Below are positions 1,901-35,308 of a DNA stretch of 37,061 nucleotides, piece by piece (position 1 is the stretch's first letter; every line of letters starts with the position of its first letter). The translations under genes were made by a program, and so were the position numbers. The DNA is from Atractiella rhizophila (taxonomy: Eukaryota). A model generated the notes under the pieces. It saw only the letters and a list, made by a program, of their open reading frames with translations, did no database searches and was not told the DNA's origin. Where the stretch lies: positions 1-37,061 of the forward strand of contig MU271633.1 of assembly GCA_021432655.1 (NCBI GenBank), in the 5' to 3' direction.

Positions 1901-4228
1901 ATGGACGCTGTCGTAGCTCAGAATCGTGGTCCCAATCCGGGTCCTTGGTACAAGAGGAAGGATATTCTGGCGCTGAACTTGTTGCTCACGTCCTGTTTGA
2001 TCACCTCGGTATGTCGCATACCCTCGCTCCTTCTTCAGTTGACCTGTGGTGAAGTCTGCCAATGGATTCGACGCCTCCAGTATGGGAGCTCTTCAAGCTC
2101 TCCCTCCCTGGGTCGGTACGTTATCCCCTAATGAAATGCTCCGATTTGGCCTGACTTGCCGGTCACAGCGTTCTTCAACGATCCCCAAGGTTCCACTCTT
2201 GGCCTGTTCGGAGCTATTCAGGTCAGCGCGTCACGTCTTTTCAAGCTCATGACTGACTGTAATTCCCAGAACATCGGCTCGCTTTGCGCTATCCCCTTCT
2301 CCCCCTTTGTCGCCGATATACTTGGTCGCAAACCTTGCATTATCTTCGGATGTCTAGTCATGATTTTGGGCGCGGCTCTCCAAGGTGCTGCTCAGAATTT
2401 TGGGACGTACATTGCTGCTCGTGGTGTCCTGGGATTTGGTCTTCAATTCGCTCAATCTGGTGCGTCTCAAAGTAAATTGAGCTTTTCTTTCTAATCGCCT
2501 TGTAGCCGCTCCTATGTTGATTACCGAATTGGCCTACCCAAGTCAAAGAGCTCAGATCACTGCCATCTTCAATTCCCTCTGGTATACAGGAGCCGTCGTT
2601 GCGTCTTGGACGATCTATGGAACTTACCAAATCGATAACAACTGGTCCTGGCGTATCCCCGCTCTCTTGCAAGGTGTTGCCCCTGTCTTCCAACTCAGCT
2701 TGCTCTTTTTCGTTCCCGAATCCCCTCGATGGCTCGTCAGCAAAGGCAAGGAGGACAGGGCTGCTCAAGTCATCGCCAAGTATCACGCTCGCGGGTGAGC
2801 ACCTTTTTCTCGCTTCAAATCAAACGACCTGAACCATGCTCTAGTGACATCAATGATCCCCTTGTCACTTTTGAAATGTCGGAGATCAAAGAAGCCCTGG
2901 CTCAAGAAGAGGAGATCAAGAGGACCACCAACTTCTTCAGCCTCTTGAATACCAGGGGAAATCGCAAGCGTTTCTTGATCATTACGGGTATTGCCTTTTT
3001 CAGCCAGTGGTCCGGAAACGGTCTCGTGTCTTATGTACGTTTGTTATTAAGACTGCTATCAGTGCTGATCACTCTCATCACCTGCTCAGTACATCGTACC
3101 GGTGCTGAAGGATGCAGGTATCACCCAGGTTGGTTTCGTTCTGTATCCATATTTCGTCGCTGAAGATCGAGACAGCAAAGTATTATCCTTCTCATCAACG
3201 CTGTGAGATTTATAGTTAAATTAACGTTAGCCGTGACTTATGATCGCAACAGCTGCTCGCTGTCTTCAACACCATCATGGCTGTTGGTGCCGCCGTTCTG
3301 GTCGAACGACTTGGTCGCCGCACGCTCTTCCTCGCATCAAACATTGGCATGCTGTTTATGTGGACGATCTGGACTTCCCTCGCTGTCAGTTTTTTGCTTA
3401 ACAGGTAAATTCATCTAAACAGCTTGGGTAAATAGGGAACGTACGAGGAGCAAGGCAACGAGGCGGCTGGAAAAGCTGTCATTGCTTTTGTAAGCTCTTC
3501 TCAGCTTTGAAGAGAATACTCCTAACCGGAGTACTTCTTAGATCTTCTTGTACTATGCGTTCTACGATATCGGTGCGCCTTCCATATTGTCGTGGACCCG
3601 CTTTTGACCGCTGAATTTGACAGCTTATTCCCCTCTACTCGTGGCGTACACTGTTGAAATTCTACCCTTCAACCTGAGGGCTAAAGGTGTCGCATTCATG
3701 AATTTCTGCGTCAGTGCCAGGTGCGTAGGATCCCATACCTTCCTGATAAAGTCTTTCGTTTTTGTTAATGTGGGCCACAGTTTGGTGTTCAATCAATACA
3801 TCAACCCCATCGCTTTGCGCCACATCCATTGGTGAGCCTCTTCTATGTCTTAAATGTTCAAATATCTCATTGGTTACTAGGCATTACTACCTCGTTTACT
3901 TGGGATGGTTGGTTTTCGAGCTCGCCTTTGTTTGGAAGCTAGTTGTAGAAACCAAGGTTTGTTTCATATCCCCAAATATCAGACGCCAAGACTCAATCTC
4001 TTCATCTACGCAGGGATTGACCTTGGAAGAAACTGCTCTCCTGTAAGAAGGTTTCGTCGGTGCCATAACATCGTACTAACGTGGAACAGATTCGACGGCG
4101 AGGACAAGAAGAATACGTTGGAGAGGCATGCTGCCGACAAGGCGCAAGGCGCCGGCGTTCAGGAACACGACGTTGCGAGCTTGAGCTCGGACGGAAAGGA
4201 AATGTCCTTCGACGACAAATCTGTTTGA
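1901..4228 (+). CDS. MFS sugar porter, lactose permease/cellodextrin transporter (Lac12/CDT/LacP)-like; 16 exons
   Basis: Manual splicing of 15 GT-AG introns gives one frame with sugar-porter motifs NGFDASSM, DILGRK, PESPRWL, FFSQWSGNGLVSYY, VERLGRR, YTVEILPFNLRAKG and ETKGLTLEE. Confidence 0.92.
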
Positions 4229-4652
4229 ACTACGATTTGTCCTTGAATTTCTGTCTGATATGTAACCTGCTGGGCAATCCATGATATGCTTTGGGATGAC
4301 TGCTTAATTAATCTCCAAAATGGTTGTGAGATACACCCTGTATAATCAATCTATGCATTCCGAGGAGTCTTCCCACATAGTCGTCGCAGAACTCTGAACC
4401 TGTCCCAATATATCACGTGTTCGCCATGGTCACTACAGCTCCAAGCTAAGCTTTCTTCCTGCTACTCGACAGCAGTGGTAAGAACCATTTTCTTTAGTCG
4501 AATTAATTTGTAAAGGTTACTCTGACGCCGATTGAGGCGTTGGACGATCAAAATATCTAGGAGAAGCAAGTGGGTGAGCGGGTGAGCTGTTGCATACACC
4601 TCAATTACCCTGACAAGAACTTCTCAAACAGCGCGAGTGATCGGTTTACGCT

Positions 4653-17131: not shown

Positions 17132-19725
17132 ATGGACTCAAAGGGAAGTGCAGCAGCAGTTATCGCAGAGGTATGGTCTTCATACATGCTCAGGAATCCC
17201 CACAAGAAACACATAGTCTAGTACCTGAAACACCCAGACGATCTCATCAAACTGCCGACTGTGCGAAAGAAGATCCAACGCGAGAAAGCATTGCTGGAGG
17301 TCAAGCTGAAAGAGAGCGCAAAGGTTCAGCTAGATGCTACTAAAGAGGTCTGTACTCTACTACATGCTGTTTCCAAGGGAGAAGACAGAGTAATTTGTGT
17401 TGCAGGGAATCGAACGGCTGGCGAAGGCTAGGTTAGCCATTTCTGGCATCAAAGAAGACTTTGTAGTCATGGGGAGGTTGAGCAAAGAGGAAGTGGATAT
17501 AGAGGGATGGAACATGTTACAGGAGGTCTGCTATTGTTCATTCTCTCTACCTGAAGTGGAAGCTCACCCCACGACTCAGGTCTCCCGAGTTCATCGCAAC
17601 TTCGTGCTAGCTAGTGAGACAACCACAAACCTTCGGAACCTCCAAACACGCATAAAAGCGGTAAAGAAGCTGCTGTCAATCGACCGTGCCGACCCATTAG
17701 GTCCATCTAAGAACCTGCTACAAATCCACTACCAGGTTTCAGAAATGGAAAAGTTCCGGAACGAGACTGTCATGCGGGCAAAGAAGAGCACGCCGGAGGA
17801 GAAGAAGACGTTGGATCGCTATTTTGAGCCGGTGGGAGAGTTGTGAGTCTCTTTTGTGCATCCGGGGCTCATACTAGGGCTGAGGAGAGACAGAATAGAA
17901 GAGTTCGAGGCTCACTATCTTCTATTAGCGGGAAGTATACTAGAAATAGTACGCAAAGGAAACCCAACTGTTGTGATTAAAATTGTCAAGATTGCAGAGG
18001 TGGAAGGTGCGCTAGATGAGAAGAGTGTCACAATCAAATTGTTGCGCAGGCAGAACAATGATGTCAGTACGCTTCTTGTTTCTAAGGGGATCTTTAACCG
18101 CTTGTGCTTGATAGATTGCGGCACGGTTTGACTACATGGAAGCTGCCGCGCGCAATATCAAACGATACCGTGCCAAAGTGCTCGATGCCATCCGCGCTTC
18201 CTGCAAGACAGCCATGGAGCGCAAGTTCGTCTCAAATCGTTCTGACCCGGTTGCATTCCTGGAAGACCTTGCCTGGATGTTCGACGATCTGGAGCTTGTC
18301 CGCGAGTTTCTTGTCGATCGTTTTCCCGCCGATTGGAACATCGAGCAACAATTCGTCAAGGCTTACCATAAGGCTCTGTACGAGTTCTTGAAGAAGTTGA
18401 CGACCGCGGATGGTGGTGTGGATGCGGCTTCTTTGCTTGCGATGAGCCAATTTGCGAAGGAATACAAGAAGTCGATGATCGCTAGTTATGGCAGTGATGA
18501 ATGGATCAAGCCACCCCTTTTCGATGACAAGGCGTCAGAGTTAATGGAAGACTACCTTAACGTGATCGTGAAGAAGATGACGGAATGGACGAACAACCTC
18601 ATGAAGACCGAAACCAAAGCTTTCGGCGATAGAGAGCAGGAGCCCTCGAAGGATGGCGATAACAAGTATTCGCTCACCGGCTCCGTCATCTTTTTCGAGA
18701 TGCTCAATCAGCAGGTCAACCTTGCTCTTGATTCGAATCAGGCACTCACGCTATCCAAAGTCGTGGAATCCAGCAACAAAGTCATGCGCGATCAGCAAAC
18801 GCTCTGGGTCAAGACGCTTGACACCGAGTACAAGGCATACGAGAAAGCTCCTAACACAGTTGCCCCTGGTCTGCCAGAATATACGATGGCCCTCGCAAAT
18901 GATCAAGTGAAGAGTGCCAACTTCGCCGAAGCAATGTCCAATCGACTCGAACCTCTCGTCAGTGAAAAGTACAAGGATCGCATAGCAGATTCAATTAACG
19001 ACGCGATGGATGGATATCTAGATGTCGCGAAGAGGTGTATACAGGTACTCATCGACATACTTTTCAATGACATCAAATCGGCAGTTTCGGATCTTTTCTC
19101 CTCGAAGTGGTATAACGAGTCTCCAATTGAACAAATCGCAGCGACGATCTCGGATTACATGCAGGACTACAAGAACGAACTGAACTCCAATCTCTTTGAT
19201 CTCGCGCTGGACGACGTGATCGACACTTTCTTGGTCAAGTACATTGATGCGATGAGGAAATGTGGAAAGCTCAAGATGCCGCAAGCAATGGATAGGATCA
19301 AAGAGGATGTTAGGAAGATGGTCAAAATGTTTGCCACCTATAAGCCGCCAAAGGAGCTGGAGGAAGACTTCCGGGTGCTCGATTCCATATTGGCTCTCCT
19401 CTCATCATCAAAAACACTCTTCGCGCTGGATTACTATCAAGTTCGTTTTCGCATCTTCTCCCTATATTTGTTTTGAAGTTGACGGTTAACCCTGGTATTT
19501 CAGTTCGCGAAGGAATACGGTCCACAACTCAAATTCGTCGAATCCATCCTGAAGGCGCGAGACGACCTGGACAGGGGATCGACCTCGGACCTGATAGAGA
19601 CTATACGTCGAAAAGCAGAGTCGACCGAGGCTCCTGCAAACCCGACAATTTTCGATCGACTCCCTGCAGCCACCGGTTTGATGGATAGGATTCAGGGACA
19701 GCTTAATGCCAGCACTCCAAAGTAG
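17132..19725 (+). CDS. SEC6: Exocyst subunit Sec6/EXOC3; 7 exons
   Basis: Motifs YLKHPDDLIKL...REKA, NLLQIHY, VIKIVKIAEVE, FPADWNI and YTMALANDQ in a long helical protein. Six GT-AG introns keep the frame; ends ASTPK*. Confidence 0.92.
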
Positions 19726-20247: not shown

Positions 20248-21668
20248 ATGTCAATCTCCAACAAACTCTCAATCACAGATGTCGACCTCAAGGACAAGCG
20301 CGTCCTAATCAGGTAAGGTCCCTCTCTGTTAGCTCGTCCCGACGCTCATAGTCGCATGTGAATGGGTGAAGAGTGGACTTCAACGTTCCACTAAAAGAGG
20401 GAAAGATAACCAACAACGCCCGTATTGTTGCTGCTCTCCCTACCATCAAATATGCCCTCGAGCACGGAGCAAAGAGTCTGATCCTCATGTCTCACCTCGG
20501 CCGCCCCAACGGTTCACCGAACAAGAAATACTCCCTCGCTCCCGTCAAGGACGAGCTTTCCAAGCTACTGGGAAAGCCCGTTACGTTCCTACAGGACTGC
20601 GTGGGGAAGGAGGTAGAGGAGAAGGTGAATGCTGGGCAAGGGGGAGAGGTCTTCCTTCTCGAGAATCTGAGGTTCCATATCGAAGAAGAAGGCAAGGGAG
20701 AGAACGAGAAGGGAGAGAAAGTGAAGGCTGGAAAGGAGGATGTGGAGAAATTCAGGAAAGGATTGACGGCATTGGGAGATGTCTACGTCAACGATGCTTT
20801 TGGCACCGCTCATCGTGCTCATTCTTCCATGGTCGGAGTACAGCTTCCTCAGAAAGCGGCTGGATTTCTTATGAAGAAAGAACTTGATTACTTTGGGAAA
20901 CACATTCTCGAAGATCCCGCCAGACCTTTCCTTGCGATCCTCGGCGGAGCAAAGGTCAAGGACAAAATTCAGCTGATCGACAATCTCCTGGACAAAGTCA
21001 ATTCCCTCATTATTTGCGGTGGCATGGCATTCACGTTCAAGAAGATCTTAGAAGGGAAGGAAATTGGGAAGTCTTTGTTTGATGAAGACGGAGCCAAGCA
21101 AGTCCACACCCTCGTCGAGAAGGCAAAGAAGAATAATGTTTCTGTGACTTTCCCGGTTGATTTCGTTGCCGCTAAAGAATTCAAGGAAGACTCCGAACCT
21201 ATCCCTGTCGGTGATTCTGTACCTGGGGACCTTATGGGATTGGATTGTGGAGAAAAATCGAACGAGCTCTTCGCAAAAGTCATCGGGGAGAGCAAAACTA
21301 TTCTTTGGAATGGACCCGCCGGTGTTTTTGAGTTCGATAACTTCGCGAAGGGCAGCAAGGCCATGTTAGATGCCTGTTTGAAAGCTTGTGAGGAAGGAAA
21401 GACCGTTGTTGTTGGTGGAGGCGATACCGCCACTGTTTGTGCCAGTCCGTCATTCCTCCCTTGCGTTGTGCTCTCAGAATGCTGATGAAACTCTGCAGAA
21501 TATGGCGTTGAGGACAAGCTTAGCCACGTCTCAACTGGTGGTGGAGCGAGCTTGGAGTTGCTCGAAGGCAAGGTTCGTTCATTTCCTTCTGCAAGAACCT
21601 TGGCCGGAAAGCAATCTGACTTTGTCATCTAGGAACTCCCTGGCGTGGTTTATTTATCCGACAAGTAA
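20248..21668 (+). CDS. PGK1: Phosphoglycerate kinase; 4 exons
   Basis: Motifs [75 protein letters not shown] and [21 protein letters not shown]. Confidence 0.98.
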
Positions 21669-21977
21669 ATCAAGTTCGTTTTCTTTGTCTAGCTCCCCTG
21701 GTACTTATTATCTCGGTTAGAAAACGAGCAATGTTGTAAAACAAAATCAATGCTTAGACTTCGGTGTAGACACAGGACTGAACAAATGGAACGAAATGAA
21801 GGAATGTCACTTGTACTACGTATCTACAGCTTTGCACTTTGACACCGGGTATAAGCAAAAAAATGAAGGATATTAGAATGTCCTGTTGTCAAACCAATTT
21901 GTCGAAATAAAAACCCAAATGAAGTCAACGAGCGAGTAGGAATTTCGAAGTGTCCACATAAAAAACGAGTCAATCAA

Positions 21978-24900
21978 TCAACCCTCCTCAGTCGAAACCT
22001 GATTTCTCCATCGATTGACAGTGTCGTTCAATGCCGGATTGTTGAATTCAGGCATCCCCATACTGCCCCCATCCTCGTCATCGGCCATCCTCATGAAATT
22101 AGGAGCCATTGGCATCGGTTGTGGCATCGCCATCCCCCCAAAACCCATACCCATCTGAGGCATCGACATCGACATCGGCATCATAGAGGGATGACCCATT
22201 CCCATTCCCATCCCCACCACCACCATCACAACCACACCCATCCCCATTCCACCCATTCCCATCCCCATCATCGACAGATGCTGATTCTGTTGCATTTGCG
22301 CCATCATCAAAGCCTGAGCTTGAGCCTGGGCGTTCACCATATTAAGGTTGCTCTGTCGCATTACCAGAGGAACGTCATCGTCATCCTCAGAGCGCCCGTG
22401 AGCCATCTTCAGTGCGAGCGGAACATCGTCGTCATCTTCCCCGCCTGTCAAAGGGTGTCTTTGCCCCTCTAATGCGAGCTGTGTGGCACGATAAGCAAGC
22501 GGCTGCTCGTCATCATCCGAATCCTGTCCCTGCATGACAGAACGCGTAGAGTTCGGCTTTTTCGGAGTAGATTTCTTCGGTAGCATAGACAGAGGTACCT
22601 CGTCATCCAAGGAATCATCGTCTTTGGATAGATCGTCCAAGGCGGGAATATTGAGGAATTGTGAGCTGGTGGTGGCTTTTGTCATGCGTTTCTTGTCAGC
22701 GACCTGAGCCAGTGGTACATCATCTGAATCAGATTCATCTCTGTCGTACTGTCGATTTTGTTGCATTTGCAGAGCAGGAGAAGCATGTCCATGATTGGAA
22801 CTCGGGAATGCCTGATAGCTGTTTACAGATATTGCCTTCGACTTTGTTGCCATGTGAGTTGGGCGAGATAGGCTGAGAGGCATGATGGGAGGTGTAGGAG
22901 AGCGTGGATCGGATTGCATGCGAAGGTCTTCTTTTTCGTGGGAATGAGCAGAAGTTTGGTCATCCCTGTCGGCGTCAAACCAAGAGTTCATGTTCTGAGG
23001 AAGTGACTCGACTGTAGGTAACGAAAGGGTAGGAGGGACGAAATGACCCAGAGGAACGTCGTCATCTGAATCTAATCAGAACTACAGTCAGGGAGTCATT
23101 CTTTGATATTATGAAGGATGAGCCAACCATCGTCTTCCTTTTGTCCATTTCCCTCTACTTCCTTCTCCATCGCCTTGCTCTTCCGTCTCAGCTTTTTGGA
23201 ATCCTTTTCTTGTTGCTTTCTCTCCTCTTCTTTCTTCTCCTTCTGCTCCTGAGCTTCGATCAGCTTTAGTTTCTCTAACTCCTTCTGCAGAAAGACATCC
23301 GGGCCAAAAAAGCTTTGAGTTTTCGTCATACCGGGTCTTTTTCCACCATCTGAAGCGGTGGCAAGCCCTGCGCCTGGAGGTGCGAGTGAAGCTGCAATTC
23401 CAGTTTGATCCGAGTTCGTACGGGAAACGAAAAGTCGACTCGGAGTCTGCACCAATCTTATAACGCCTCGTTAACGGACGGAAACTACAGAGATTGCCAT
23501 GCACTCACTTGTTCCGTTCTTTCCGAACCGCATGCCTCCTCTCGATATCGTCCATCAAGCTCCGCCCAAATAACTTCCCCACCGGCCTGCGTTCAACCAT
23601 CAGCGTAGGGGCTTCCTCTCCATCCTCTAGCCGCATTTCTTCTTCAATCACTACCCAATCCGACTCATCCAAATCCTCCCCATTCTCGATCTTTTTTCGG
23701 ACTCTGTATCTGGGATCCAACGGTTCTGGTAAGACTAGAATCTTTGGCCGAAGGCTCTCTTTGAACCGTGGACGATCTTCGATTTCTCTTTGCATTTCCT
23801 CCAGATGTTTGGGGTCCAGGCGTGAAGAATAAGAAAGACGTTTCATGTCCGGAGTCATATTATCACGTTCTGGGTCGTCTTCGAGATTAGCTCGAAGGGA
23901 GGCACGGCTGACTGGCCGTGGAGCCATGGATGGAGGGAGAGCAGCTTCTTCGGCAGTCAGAGGTTCGATATCTGATTTTGTTCGTTTGCGAGAACCTGAT
24001 GAAAGATCTCGGAGCATGACAGACGAAGAGAAGGAATGCACAGGCTTATGCACGGATCTTGATGCCAGGAACGATGGGGTTGTACCAGCATTCAACATCG
24101 ACATAGCATTCATTGAGACCGCGCGATTTCTGTCGTGATCTTTCCGCTCCTTTTTGAGATCTGCAAACCAATCATGATTCTCTTCTGCCGCTGGTTGGCC
24201 CAAAGGAAAGGTCAAAAAGCTGGTTGTGAGCGGCCCAGCTGATGCAGCGATCTTCGGATCAAAATCGTCGAGAGCCACAGATTTAGGCCGTCCACGATTT
24301 AGGACACTACCCGTTCCCGCTGAGGGAGATACGACGCCAGTTGAGGAGGTCCTTGCTCTTGCAGGGACCGAGACAAAAAGGTCATCAAGGGCCACAGATT
24401 TTGGACGACCGCGTGAGAGCAAGCTCGCACGGTTGTCCTCTGGCTGGGTGGAAACACTCCCCATAGGAACTGAAAGGGAATGGGAAACTTCGTTGAAAAC
24501 TGATCGAGGTCGTGGACGATCCAAAACGCTCGCGCTCCCAAGGCTCCTACTCCGTGCTCTTCTGAGCGAAGGGCTCTCAGTCTCCTTCAGCGGGGTAGTG
24601 GCGATCTCTCCTTTCAATGCCGCGATTTTAGCTTTGATCCTCTCGAGTTCGGTGAAACCATCACCCTCCTCCTTTCTCAGAACCTCGATGTCTTCGGATA
24701 CTTCAAAGGAACTCTTTGGACGACCTCGGTTAAGAACGCTGCTTCTCTCCTTGTCGGGACTCGACTCTCTCTTTCGGAACGCTGCCAACTCTTCCATAAC
24801 CTCCCTCCTGCCTGTGTCCAGAGAAACAGCACGGTGATGCTCTTCCTCCCTTTCAGCTGCTTCATGTTGCCCCTGTGGTCTTTCTCCCCTCCTGTACCTC

Positions 24901-25985
24901 TCAAAGTCGAGTGCTGAATATTTTTTCTCTTGCTCCTTCCTCTCCTGCTCCCTCGCCTTCCGCTTGGCCACAACTCCTTCGGCTTCTGAATCGGAGAAAT
25001 CGAGACTCTTCATACTATGAATGCTTCGAGGACGTCGACGGATGGATTCGGGGACTATGCGAGGGGAGGCAGACTGAGGACGATCGGGAGGGGTAAGTTG
25101 CCCCGTTTCAGCCGCTTGTCCTCTGGACGAGGAGGGATTTCTAGGGAAGTTGAACGATTCAAAGCGTCTCCCGATCCGTGGGGGAGCTTTTAGCTCGTCG
25201 TCGATACTCTCGAAAGTCTCTCCAATCGTGAGCTGGGACGGACCTGCACTCATGCCCCTGTTCAGCACGTCAGGCAGACTTCGAGTCTCGAGCCTTTCTT
25301 CTTCGTCTTGCTGATTCGAAGATCCAGCTTCAGCACTCTTCAGGAAATTCTGGAAATCAAATTCGCTCTTCGCTCTTCCACGTTCCTGGGCTCTCACTCC
25401 ATGATGCTTCGCCGTCTGACCACCGGAGAGGTTCTTCATGAACTCGTCCAGTCCATAATCCTTCGCCAGCTCTTCTTCCTCCTGAGGTTCCTCGTTCACG
25501 ATTCCTCCAGCTCCGCTGTTTTCAAAGAAAGCAGGTAAATCCAACGTCCTGCTCCCCGGTGTTCCCGGGCCATCCATAGGAGGAAGATCGAGCACTTTAC
25601 TACCTCCTCCAAACTTGAAGTCGCTAACCATACTATTAGGACGAAAAGTGCTGATCCTCTTGTCCCTCATCGCTACCTCAGCGTCTGGACCAAAATAATC
25701 ATCTTGTTTCTCTTCCACCTCCGTAGTCTTCTTCTTTAAGAATGGAGATAGTATGGCGGATTCGGCCGCTCGCTTCCTGCTACCAGGAGGTCGCGCAGCA
25801 TCCGGTTCGTCTTCATCGTCGTCGTATTCGATCAGCGCGGCGGCTAGCTGGATGCGGGAAAAGAGAGGAGCGGAGGGAGGTGGAGGCTTTACAGGAGGAG
25901 GGGAGGGTAGTGGTGGTGCCTTCGTGTTGGGAGACGGAGCAGCAACATTGGATTTAGAGGAGTGCGAGCGCTTGAATAGAGGCAT
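21978..25985 (-). CDS. Large disordered protein with RGRPKS and DDDVPL repeats and a Gly/Met-rich tail; 3 coding exons
   Basis: The 829-, 119- and 337-aa ORFs are joined by GT-AG introns near 23509-23458 and 23128-23073. The start is probably MPLFKR at 25985, after a 5' UTR intron. Confidence 0.8.
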
Positions 25986-26706
25986 AACTGGCACCTATGG
26001 TTCTAAGTTGATAAATCAGCTGCTTTGTAGGAACTCGATATCATGAGCTTTGCGTCCACCATCCATACATTTGCGTTGGTTACAGCATGCTTGCTTGGCT
26101 GCACTGTGGAGCAATGAAGCAGAAACTGCAAGGTAGCCATACCACGGCTCGTTATATGGCATATGATGGCTTTTAAACGTCAATCGACTAAGCTCTCTAG
26201 CTCCGACTGTGGTATGGAGTTGCAGGTTGCAAATTACTCGCTACAGTAGCTTGCTCCTGCACCAATCTCGCCGGTATTTGTACAACCATACCACTTGGAG
26301 ATGTCTCCTCAAGTGTTCATCTGGATCTCATTGACAGAGCTGGAGGGAGAGCACTCTGGGCAACCACGAAACGAACACGAACAGCAGCTGTCTCCCCAAT
26401 ACTGAGATTCAACTAAACGCACCTTGCCTTAGAACCCAGAACAGACTCAAATGGACCTCAAATACTGAAAATATCCTCACGAAATAAACCTCGGTAACCT
26501 GTTCCACCCTGCTACTGCACAACTGTGCTTCCCAAAATGGTGCAGCGGTCGGAAGTGCTAGACCATCCTCTTCCCGATATGAAAAGACATTGATTTCACA
26601 TTGGCACTTTAGCCGACTTCAGCGCTTCAGCTTTGTAATGTACATGATTGCCTAATGTAGTCATGGGCCAAACTGGCCATATGTGAACACCATGAATATG
26701 AATTTA

Positions 26707-28502
26707 CTATCCCAGCGCACTTAGATCCAGACGACCGACAACGTCATCGGCATTCACACCATTCACATCCCTCCAGCTATAATCCGTGAAAAGGTTCTGA
26801 AACCACCGCGTGCCATCTTTCCCTCCATCGTCTCGACTTAAAGAGCCTCCGTCCTCCAAGTCTTCGAGGAGCTCCTGAGTGAGGGCGATGTTGAGGTTCT
26901 CGGCGAGAGCGACGTCGAGCGTCGTCGCTCCTTTTGGAGCGGGCGGGAGAGAGGAGAAAGGATCTTCTTGCTCTTGGGCGGGTGAAGATTCGGCGGACGG
27001 GTTGGTTTGAGAGGTTAAGAGGAGGACGATACGGTCTGCGAGAGCTGGAGAGGCGTAGTATGGCGTGTAGAGGATGGATAGTCCGGAAGGAAATGTCTTC
27101 ATTCGAATCAAGGGAGAACTGGACACGGTTGAAAGGTGTCGGGATGCTTTGAGGAGATCTTCCGGCGAAACAAGAGCTAAGGCGCGCTGGTTCAGAACAA
27201 GATTGAGAAGAGAGTAAGAGAAGGTACTGACAAACACGACGTGCGCGATTCCAAGCGCACCAAACTTCATCGAGACTCATGATCCCCTTCCCACGCTCGT
27301 CAGCCATCAACCCTTCGCCTTCTCTTCCGCCCTTGAGGCGAACACCGCGTCCGTTGAGGACGCCGACCAGCTCTCGACATAGCTCCAGTCCGTCTCCATC
27401 CATCACTGCTGGCTCGACCAAACCGAGAGACAGCAGGGTGCTCTTAATACTGGTGGTATCCGTTCCCGCCGATTGTGCCTGATCGAGCTTGGTGCTCAAT
27501 GCTTGCGCTTCAGTCAATGCATCCTTGTATCGGTACATGAGAGTGTCGAGGTCCGCGAATGCGGATTGGAGGTCGGAGCGCTGGGTTTCTGCTTCGATGT
27601 CAATGCGCTTGATGAGCCCATCTAACATCGCCCCCTCAGCGACTTAAGTCGAGAGTAAGAGGGAAAGCATACCGATCCCTATGAGAATCTCTTTCTTTGC
27701 TTCCTTACCAGCACCGGCGGCGGTCTGAGGAGTGGGGAGAGTGACCCAGGCGCGACGTGAGATGGCCCGCTTGAGATCCTCGTAGAACTTTTATCCCCTC
27801 CTTGTCGAAAGCTCAGTCGAACCTCTTCCTCCTTTGCCGCTGATGAGGGAACGGTCGCTGGGAGAGAGGCTGAAGCGAGGGCAGATCCGCATATCTCGCA
27901 ATGGGAGAGGGAAGGATGGTTGAGGTACGTGCACGCCGGACAAGATATCCGTATGTCGTCTGGAGTTACGGCAGGAGCGGAAGGCGAAGAAGAAAGGGAT
28001 GTGACGGCGGGCGAAGGATTTGGGGTAGACGACGACCGCTTGACTCCGCAGAGGGTGCATTTCGCGTGTTCGGCGCCATTCGAGAAAGCGCAAATGCTGC
28101 ATACCCAACTCGCACCTGCCTCCACGTCGTTCGACTCTGCGATATCTGCGGATGAGGTCGACTGCGGCCCGAGGAGGAGTGTGATTTTGGCGCTTGAGCG
28201 CAAGAAGCCGATCCAGGATTCGGTGCGTCGGACGTCCTTGAGGAGGATGTAGAAGGATTCATGCTCGGGACGTGTGGGATGGTGGTATATCAGCCGGTGG
28301 GACGTGAGATGGACGGTGCCTGATGGATGGGATGGTTCCTTTGACTTTCTGGCCACGGCGTGCCATGAGTAAGGCTTAGAAGGGACAGTAGAAGATTGAC
28401 AAACCCACGATAGATGCCTACTGCGTCCTGGGAAAGCAGTATAGACTCGTTCGCGTAGAGCTGAGCGGAGAGATGCACTGTCGATAAGCTGTGCAAATAC
28501 AT
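26707..28502 (-). CDS. VPS36: ESCRT-II subunit Vps36 (split GLUE domain, two NZF zinc fingers, EAP30 winged-helix region); one frameshift
   Basis: Motifs LLSQDAVGIY, GTVHLTSHRLIY, WVCSICAFSN...CTLCG, CPACTYLNHPSLSHCEICG, LSFRQGG, AFADLDTLM, WNRAR and DDGGKDGTRWF. The frame breaks near 27790. Confidence 0.93.
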
Positions 28503-29062
28503 TATGTCTTTTTATTCATGTCTTGATAAGTGAAGTATCCGACTCCATCGGCATCTCCGCTCCACTTCTGCTTTGGATATCCGATCAATGTTAGCGACAC
28601 TCCGCGGCTTCAAAGGGACGACCATCACCTGTCAGCAATCGGCATCTGCCACCTGACCTGTCGCTACTTTGAACTACTCCGGACCCCAGACGTCAGGCCA
28701 TCGGGTCACGAATCTCGGACAGACTCCGACTCATCCCAGGCAATGGTAACAAGCATGCACTGAGGCCACTTTCAAATTCAAATATTCAGCCTCCCAGCTT
28801 ATTTCAAACCGCCATCTCCAACGAGCACGGCGATTACTCCAGGGCTGAGTAGAAAGGGCCGTATCCAAGCAAGTGCGCCAGTGTAAGTCGTCTCCGTCGG
28901 TATGATATCTCCGGAGTGAGCGAGCGTTCAGGCTGGACACGGCGTACTCGGATTAATCATCTACAATACACCTTTAAGCTGGCCTTCAGCACGCCATACT
29001 GCTAGTCGGCTCCACGCCACCTACGATTTCAGCTCTCCTCTGAACCACATCGCCGAACCAAC

Positions 29063-33671: not shown

Positions 33672-33782
33672 CTTGCCAATTTACTTTCTGTTAGTCTCGA
33701 ACCAAACCAACAGTCATTGAGTCATTCTTTTACTGTCGAGTCATCCAATCAGGTCCTCTTTGCTGCTACCTTTTGAAAGACG
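33672..33782. promoter_or_regulatory. Compact bidirectional promoter between MIC19 and GCD2, containing TGAGTCA
   Basis: 111 bp between the divergent ATGs; TGAGTCA at 33718-33724. Confidence 0.55.
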
Positions 33783-35308
33783 ATGTCCCCTGCTCCCACT
33801 CCAGCAAGCGCTCTTCCCAGCACGGGCAAGGCGAACTCAAAGCAGGATAAGAAAGCAGATAAAGCAGCACGCCGGCAGGCAGCAAAAGGAGCCGCACCCG
33901 CTCCCCCTTCAACAACCAGCTCAGCAAAGCCGTCAAATGGACCGACAATCAACGTCAATGTCAACAAAGCGCCTGCGATCACAACGTCCGCCGCGCCAAA
34001 CAATAGATCTACGAAAGAAAAGCTACCCGTAACTCCAACCGCCACAACAGTCGCTTCAGTATCAAGCGCTATCGATCAGCCCTCTCATGCCATTTCTTCG
34101 CTCTTGACCCATCTCCCGTCTGCTACCAAACCGAATAATGTCCTACCTCCGAATCCAGTGCACCCCAAAGTTCAGGCGCTAGCGCTTGAATATTCTACTT
34201 TCGCCATAGCTGGGAGCAATGCTCGAGCAATTGCTATGCTTGAGGCTTTTAAACAGGTATGTCTTCCTCACAACCTGCGTCTGCTACTAAGTTGCACAAA
34301 CCAGGTCATTAGAGACTATCGAACACCGAAATCTGAAGCTCTATCGCGGCATCTTCTCTCCCATATATCGCACCAAATCTCCTACCTCGTTGAGCGAAGT
34401 CGGCCACTGAGCACCAGCATGGGAAACGCCATCCGATATCTCAAATGGGAGATCACAAAATTGGGCCAGGAGAAACAACGAGGAGAGGACGAGGTACCAA
34501 ACACTATTTTCGATAAAATTTGACTCACAGATCCTAGGCAAAGGCGCATTTGATAGAAACGATTGACTACTTCATTCGAGATCGAATCGTCCTTGCTGAT
34601 AAGATCATACAAGATATCGCTTGCTCCCGTATTAAAGAAAGCGAAGTAGTGATGGTATATGGACGGTTTGTTTATAACCCCTCTCTGTTCGTCTGTGGCT
34701 TGACGCAAAACTATAGGTCGTCGGTCATTGAATCTGTCCTTCTTGCTGCACATCGAAGCGGCAAAAGGTTTTCCGTCATCGTGGTGGACTCGCCACTCCT
34801 CCACGAAGGACGTACCCTTCTTCCGCGTTTGCTGTCCCTTGCTCCGGCAATCAGTGTAACCTATCTCCTCCTTCCATCCGTCGGTTCACTTCTCCAGTCT
34901 TCAACCCCTCCCACGCTTTTCCTTTCTGGCGCACACACAATTTTCTCGAACGGGAGCGTCATGGCTCGATCCGGTACATCTCTCATTGCTTCTTTAGTCA
35001 ACAAGAAAGGAGGGATACCGGTTGTATTCTGCTGCGAGACATACAAGTTTTCTGAAAAGGTTGCCCTTGAGAGCGTCGTCATAAACGAGCTTGGTTGGTC
35101 CCCTCGCCCCTCCCGCCTGCTCTCAGCTAACCTTGTTCGTATTGCAGCACCTAAAAAGAAAGGCGGGATGGAGAACGAGCTGCTTTACGACGTTACCACA
35201 AGCAGCAATGTCACTTGTGTCATTTCTGAGGCTGGAATGGTACCTGTGGAAAGCGCCGCAATTTTGCTTAGAGAGTTTAAGCCTATTCTTGCTGGAGCGG
35301 AGAGCTAG
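33783..35308 (+). CDS. GCD2: Translation initiation factor eIF2B delta subunit; 5 exons
   Basis: Motifs VHPKV...IAGSNARAIAMLEAFKQVIRDY, RPLSTSMGNAIR, FSVIVVDSPLLHEG, FSNGSVMARSGT, PVVFCCETYKFSEKV and LLYDVT. Confidence 0.93.

Follow-up and report, generated by a model that had tools for sequence, protein, structure and literature searches.

The phosphoglycerate kinase (PGK) gene of Atractiella rhizophila carries a real intron at its 3' end, with an acceptor used in RNA, a dominant donor downstream of the stop codon and a cytosolic product, and the cryptic PTS1-like tail that lies behind this intron, KRAML, has probably been selected. Our main reading, which we hold at a probability of roughly 0.6, is that tandem 5' donors around the PGK stop codon give rise to a minor, putatively peroxisomal isoform. 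Most messages are spliced from the donor at 21674, losing a 47-nt 3'-UTR intron but retaining the TAA and encoding cytosolic PGK, while a minority would use the weaker donor at 21665, lose the stop, gain five residues and end in ...KKRAML. The two basic residues before A-M-L would make this end a weak PTS1 for Pex5, and a small share of PGK may thus enter peroxisomes. There, if the analogy with Ustilago maydis holds, it would join peroxisomal GAPDH in keeping ATP and redox in balance.

The PGK gene and its last intron

The features of the gene are collected in Table 1, with positions given in the window, that is, the whole stretch of 37,061 nucleotides that was analyzed. The product belongs to family PF00162, which identifies it as PGK, and its top match in the protein database is the A. 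rhizophila PGK itself (P0001, 100% identity over 415 aa), a cytosolic glycolytic enzyme whose annotated product ends in ...YLSDK and has no PTS1. This is the single PGK-family match in the whole assembly; the gene is therefore single copy and there is no tagged PGK paralogue. The neighbors of PGK are ordinary, with Sec6 upstream (18115-19725), a convergent low-complexity gene with no Pfam match downstream (21978-25994), and, farther on, Vps36 (26777-28515) and an eIF2B-family subunit (33777-35308).

Table 1. Features of the PGK locus and of the splice sites around its stop codon
Feature	Position	Strand	Remarks
PGK coding region	20248..21668	+	open frame; 415 aa; cytosolic end ...YLSDK
PGK exons	20248-20312, 20372-21444, 21499-21572, 21633-21668	+	
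Upstream (cryptic) 5' donor GTAAAT	21665..21670	+	overlaps last Lys codon and stop; splicing from it would remove the TAA
TAA stop of the cytosolic form	21666..21668	+	followed by ATC; differs from the UGA-CU readthrough motif
Downstream (dominant) 5' donor GTTCGT	21674..21679	+	past the TAA; hexamer identical to the intron 3 donor
47-nt 3'-UTR intron	21674..21720	+	removed in all transcript contigs seen
Branch-point-like CTTAT	21704..21708	+	by sequence likeness; ends 12 nt before the intron end
Common TAG 3' acceptor	21718..21720	+	RNA joints
Start of last exon, cryptic tail (K)KRAML-stop	21721..21739	+	in frame with both donors

RNA data were taken from 4 runs (X15, X1, X16, and X3) of the 24 listed, all as assembled contigs; one of the four is recorded as RNA, and spliced joints were present in all of them. 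PGK introns 1, 2, and 3 were seen as RNA joints in three, four, and three of the runs, respectively. At the 3' end, the joint 21673^21721, a GT..AG intron of 47 nt that keeps the stop, was found in every run, with a depth of 9750 in X15, whereas the 56-nt joint 21664^21721, which loses the stop and was the junction to look for under the sequence-only reading of this locus, was found in 0 of the 4 sets of assembled contigs. That reading had correctly placed GTAAAT, CTTAT, and a TAG acceptor 56 nt from the donor, and its acceptor is now confirmed by RNA in all four runs; removal of the 56 nt indeed leaves a 420-aa protein ending in ...SDKKRAML, with the new TAA at 21737-21739. The extent of the intron was not confirmed, the RNA intron starting at a second donor that it had not included. 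In PGK introns 2 and 3, too, the branch motif ends 12 nt before the intron end, as CTTAT does here. Junction-dependent decay obeys a 50-55 nt rule, and the 21673^21721 junction, only 5 nt past the stop, is too close to it for such decay.

The locus therefore has two donors 9 nt apart, one on either side of the stop, and one acceptor. The upstream donor had been described as good, which is an overstatement given that GTAAAT lacks the G at +5 that GTTCGT has and that is present in 12 of the 13 other donors of A. rhizophila PGK (4) and GAPDH (9, deduced from its 337-aa open frame). When matching consensus positions are simply counted, the two donors nevertheless tie at 7/11 each, and since one GAPDH donor is GTATAA, an A at +5 is usable in A. 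rhizophila. Any gene ending in AAG-TAA yields the upstream donor for free, so the donor alone is no sign of selection; a GT stands at the corresponding place in 15 of the 17 fungal PGK loci described below. No other donor/acceptor pair near the stop gave a short PTS1-like end with an intact C terminus.

The weight of the missing 21664^21721 junction is mixed. Rare forms can survive in the contigs, given that a minor intron 3 joint persisted in X15 with a depth of 27 against 13456 (∼0.2%) and that retention of intron 3 is visible in X15, at low depth, and in X1. Contig assembly, on the other hand, drops rare variants, the 9-nt difference between the products of the two donors would probably form a simple assembly bubble, and the contigs considered leave out 603 pieces as well as 7 loose ends. 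The minor intron 3 joint spans 65 nt (21568-21632) and would be explained by a GC donor that precedes the normal donor by 5 nt; it was discarded as a source of a PTS1, since it changes the reading frame and no PTS1 results, and it looks like splicing noise. Strain variants were absent from 21665-21673 and 21721-21739 across the four runs, a stretch too short to speak for conservation.

The KRAML tail and other fungal PGK loci

Among the three frames behind the proven acceptor, an early stop and a short tail are found in the PGK frame only. We compared this tail with two null sets, using patterns that were set after the tail had been seen. The first set consisted of the other YAG sites of the window, 1839 in number, to each of which the same two bases were joined. 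Tails of no more than 16 residues that end in a basic residue and [SAC]x[LM] appeared at none of them, and the looser [SAC]x[LM] end at 14. Shuffles of 21721-21850 gave the stricter end in 36 and the looser one in 157 of 20000 cases. A chance origin of KRAML is unlikely given that the basic residue plus [SAC]x[LM] end occurred at 0/1839 control acceptors.

We then considered 80 metagenome PGK loci, 72 of which had a readable 3' end, the remaining 8 being dropped from the counts. A locus was scored when it offered a donor no more than 9 nt from the stop, an intron of 40 to 75 nt, and a short tail ending in [SAC][KRHNQM][LM]; Met at -2 was admitted on account of AML, and GAG acceptors were also admitted. 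Loci with at least 78% identity to a database fungal PGK were classed as fungal (n=17, of which L017 and L018 are near-identical) and the rest as others (n=55), although some of these may be early-branching fungi. PTS1-like tails were predicted in 9/17 fungal loci and 0/55 others. The Fisher test restricted to the 16 fungal and 16 other loci offering any GT..AG pair gave a p of 0.0008, and counting by GT..AG pair gave 13/90 fungal against 0/37 other (p 0.011). The tripeptides are canonical in 8 of the 9 scoring fungal loci, and the count becomes 8/17 without Met at -2.

The ninth tail is the same as that of A. rhizophila. At locus L010 (∼1395-1470), which is 89 to 90% identical to the PGKs of Sordaria, Copromyces, and Diplogelasinospora (Sordariales), a donor in the same last Lys codon and a predicted intron of 46 nt lead to an identical KRAML end, and the contig keeps this candidate intron unspliced. 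Many ascomycete PGK loci fit a layout of this retention type, judging from predicted splices. At two loci, L011 (SRL) and L050 (ARL), the PTS1 tail can be reached either by a predicted splice or by readthrough of unspliced RNA, because the intron length is a multiple of 3.

Among 226 database PGK proteins, PTS1-like extended ends were found in 3 (AKL once and PNL twice) and an AML end in none. The 3' ends of relatives, which had been suggested as a check, thus speak in part: PTS1-like tails are predicted in 9 of the 17 fungal loci, all from distant fungi, but no close relative of the A. rhizophila PGK was found, with none above 73% identity among the proteins and none above 72% among the 80 metagenome loci. 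The claim that a cryptic tail can be reached here by splicing likewise stands in part, backed by the real acceptor, the null tests, and the other fungal loci but not by the stop-removing junction, which was not seen.

AML as a peroxisomal signal

As had been stated from the sequence, AML is non-canonical, failing [SAC][KRH][LM]. It does fit the plant class [SA]x[LMI] with upstream basic residues, and the excerpts of PMC3487989 describe such ends as working in plants when basic residues lie upstream, while those of PMC3355810 list two peroxisomal proteins of Arabidopsis with SML and, from rice, one orthologue of an ARL protein with AML. A fungal test of AML was not found in the parts of the literature searched, which included excerpts of PMC9133605, PMC12316961, and PMC2448379.

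The A. rhizophila genome has Pex13. Among its 13 AMP-binding_C matches, four distinct genes end in a basic residue and AKL, one in GKL, and one has no PTS1, as is the case for one of the two acyl-CoA oxidase genes; none of the acyl-CoA synthetase and oxidase ends read was AML. A search of the genome for [RS]AM[LF] returned 80 matches, of which 30 were translated and 8 read closely, and none of these was recognizable as the end of an enzyme.

Two other glycolytic genes of A. rhizophila have 3' ends worth recording. In GAPDH (L007 2589-2665, G000:C1042), a K-R-A-P-L-stop tail lies in frame past two TAA codons and could be attached by a predicted 48-nt GT..AG intron, whose weak donor precedes the stop by 8 nt, or by a 57-nt GC..AG intron; this KRAPL and the KRAML of PGK have the K-R-A-x-L shape in common. 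At the end of the same contig (L007 ∼3100-4295) stands a tandem repeat of the 3' half of this gene, which begins within an intron, shows a few substitutions, and may represent either a second allele or an artefact of assembly. The TPI matches (L134 and L135, on G000:C330 and C386) correspond to one intronless open frame of 258 aa in an intron-rich genome, with an unusual 3' end at which the apparent stop shares bases with a consensus GTGAGT donor; a frame downstream of it ends in ...SRLTRL.

Known systems and routes to the tail

Peroxisomal forms of glycolytic enzymes hidden behind a stop codon are known from other fungi. The Aspergillus nidulans PGK gains a PTS1 by differential splicing (Freitag, Ast, and Bolker 2012, via excerpts of PMC3798809 and PMC12316961), the U. 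maydis GAPDH gains one by splicing in ∼10% of its mRNA, and the U. maydis PGK and TPI do so by readthrough of UGA-CUA (excerpts of PMC3798556 and PMC4207609); further excerpts treat the splicing and readthrough cases of Aspergillus and U. maydis (PMC9549241, PMC10688622, and bioRxiv 2021.11.08.467853). The Atractiella case resembles that of A. nidulans in the enzyme, in a tail, here a putative PTS1, that is hidden past the normal stop and would be attached by 3'-end splicing, and in what would be a minor isoform. It differs in that the cytosolic form is itself spliced, through tandem donors and a common acceptor, in that the isoform is predicted and its tripeptide is AML, with Met at -2, and in that the organism is a basidiomycete of the Pucciniomycotina. 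With the U. maydis GAPDH, PGK, and TPI it has in common that they are basidiomycete glycolytic enzymes with a cryptic PTS1, putative in Atractiella, and, as in the readthrough cases, the main mRNA carries the tail in frame past the stop. In the malate dehydrogenase (MDH) of Yarrowia lipolytica and Aspergillus fumigatus (excerpts of PMC7491326), the making of a PTS1 is likewise decided by closely spaced tandem splice sites of a terminal intron, but those are 3' acceptors 4 nt apart, combined with retention, whereas the PGK of Atractiella has 5' donors 9 nt apart. Peroxisomal PGK in Atractiella or the Pucciniomycotina was not the subject of any paper that our literature search listed.

It could be that A. 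rhizophila has no peroxisomal PGK and that the last intron is an ordinary 3'-UTR intron, the tail being due to chance or an unreached remnant of an ancestral cryptic PTS1. The stop-keeping junction is the only one seen, in all four runs, the upstream donor requires no selection, and AML, besides being non-canonical, finds no support among the A. rhizophila protein ends read. The same facts count against our main reading: 21664^21721 is absent from the four runs even though X15 kept a neighboring joint at ∼0.2%, and the upstream donor, which has no G at +5, comes with the AAG-TAA end in any case. A further point against our main reading is that a predicted PGK splice of Y. lipolytica went undetected in RNA-seq according to the excerpts of PMC7491326. 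We nevertheless consider an exclusively cytosolic PGK somewhat unlikely, given null rates of 0 to 0.8% for such a tail in the PGK frame, the identical KRAML in L010, and the tails predicted in the other scoring fungal loci. Nor is silence of the contigs decisive, since they drop rare variants and leave so many pieces and loose ends out of view, and since a peroxisomal splice form can be very scarce, the GND form of Candida albicans making up ∼0.1% of the mRNA in the excerpts of PMC7491326.

The tail might instead be reached by stop-codon readthrough on the spliced mRNA that we observed. With 9 nt between the two donors, the message that has lost the 47-nt intron carries KRAML in frame three codons past the TAA and reads ...SDK-stop-IKKRAML-stop, and readthrough is the mechanism that the U. 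maydis PGK employs. The stop context, however, is TAA-ATC and not the leaky UGA-CU(A); UGA-CU is required for efficient readthrough in U. maydis, and exchanging UGA for UAA or UAG lowers it (excerpts of PMC4207609); two donors falling in one frame is, moreover, a 1 in 3 chance. Readthrough is thus a weaker rival than alternative-donor splicing and appears improbable to us, splicing being the likelier route in Atractiella, whereas the U. maydis PGK uses readthrough. On unspliced RNA, readthrough meets another stop first and ends in ...IKFVFFV-stop, with no PTS1. The sequence-only reading had assigned cytosolic PGK to retention and the peroxisomal form to splicing of the 56-nt intron. That intron is well formed, and the retention-type layout of many ascomycete PGK loci, together with the unspliced L010 contig, is in its favor. 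In A. rhizophila, however, the depth of the bin 21676-21749 equals the contribution of its exon part alone in all four runs, so no contig covers 21676-21720, although X15 and X1 do show retention of intron 3. Splicing from 21674 leaves the stop in the common message, and retention is therefore not the source of cytosolic PGK; this version is largely refuted and we give it hardly any credence.

Splicing from tandem donors accordingly remains our main reading. A bolder proposal, which we regard as doubtful, is that KRAML works as a fungal PTS1 not reported before and is common to PGK isoforms of one ascomycete and one basidiomycete, with two routes to the tail in A. rhizophila (the upstream donor, or readthrough after removal of the 47-nt intron), and that the GAPDH of A. 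rhizophila may carry a matching KRAPL. GAPDH and PGK would then form a peroxisomal pair under splice control, marked by a K-R-A-x-L signal typical of the lineage. The concept of the cryptic PTS1, in print since 2012, is unchanged by the PGK case. If our main reading is true, AML would join the fungal PTS1 repertoire, and predictors keyed to a basic residue at -2 would miss it; the choice between cytosolic and peroxisomal PGK would rest on a compact 9-nt tandem-donor switch, and cryptic peroxisomal glycolysis would reach a root-endophytic fungus of the Pucciniomycotina.
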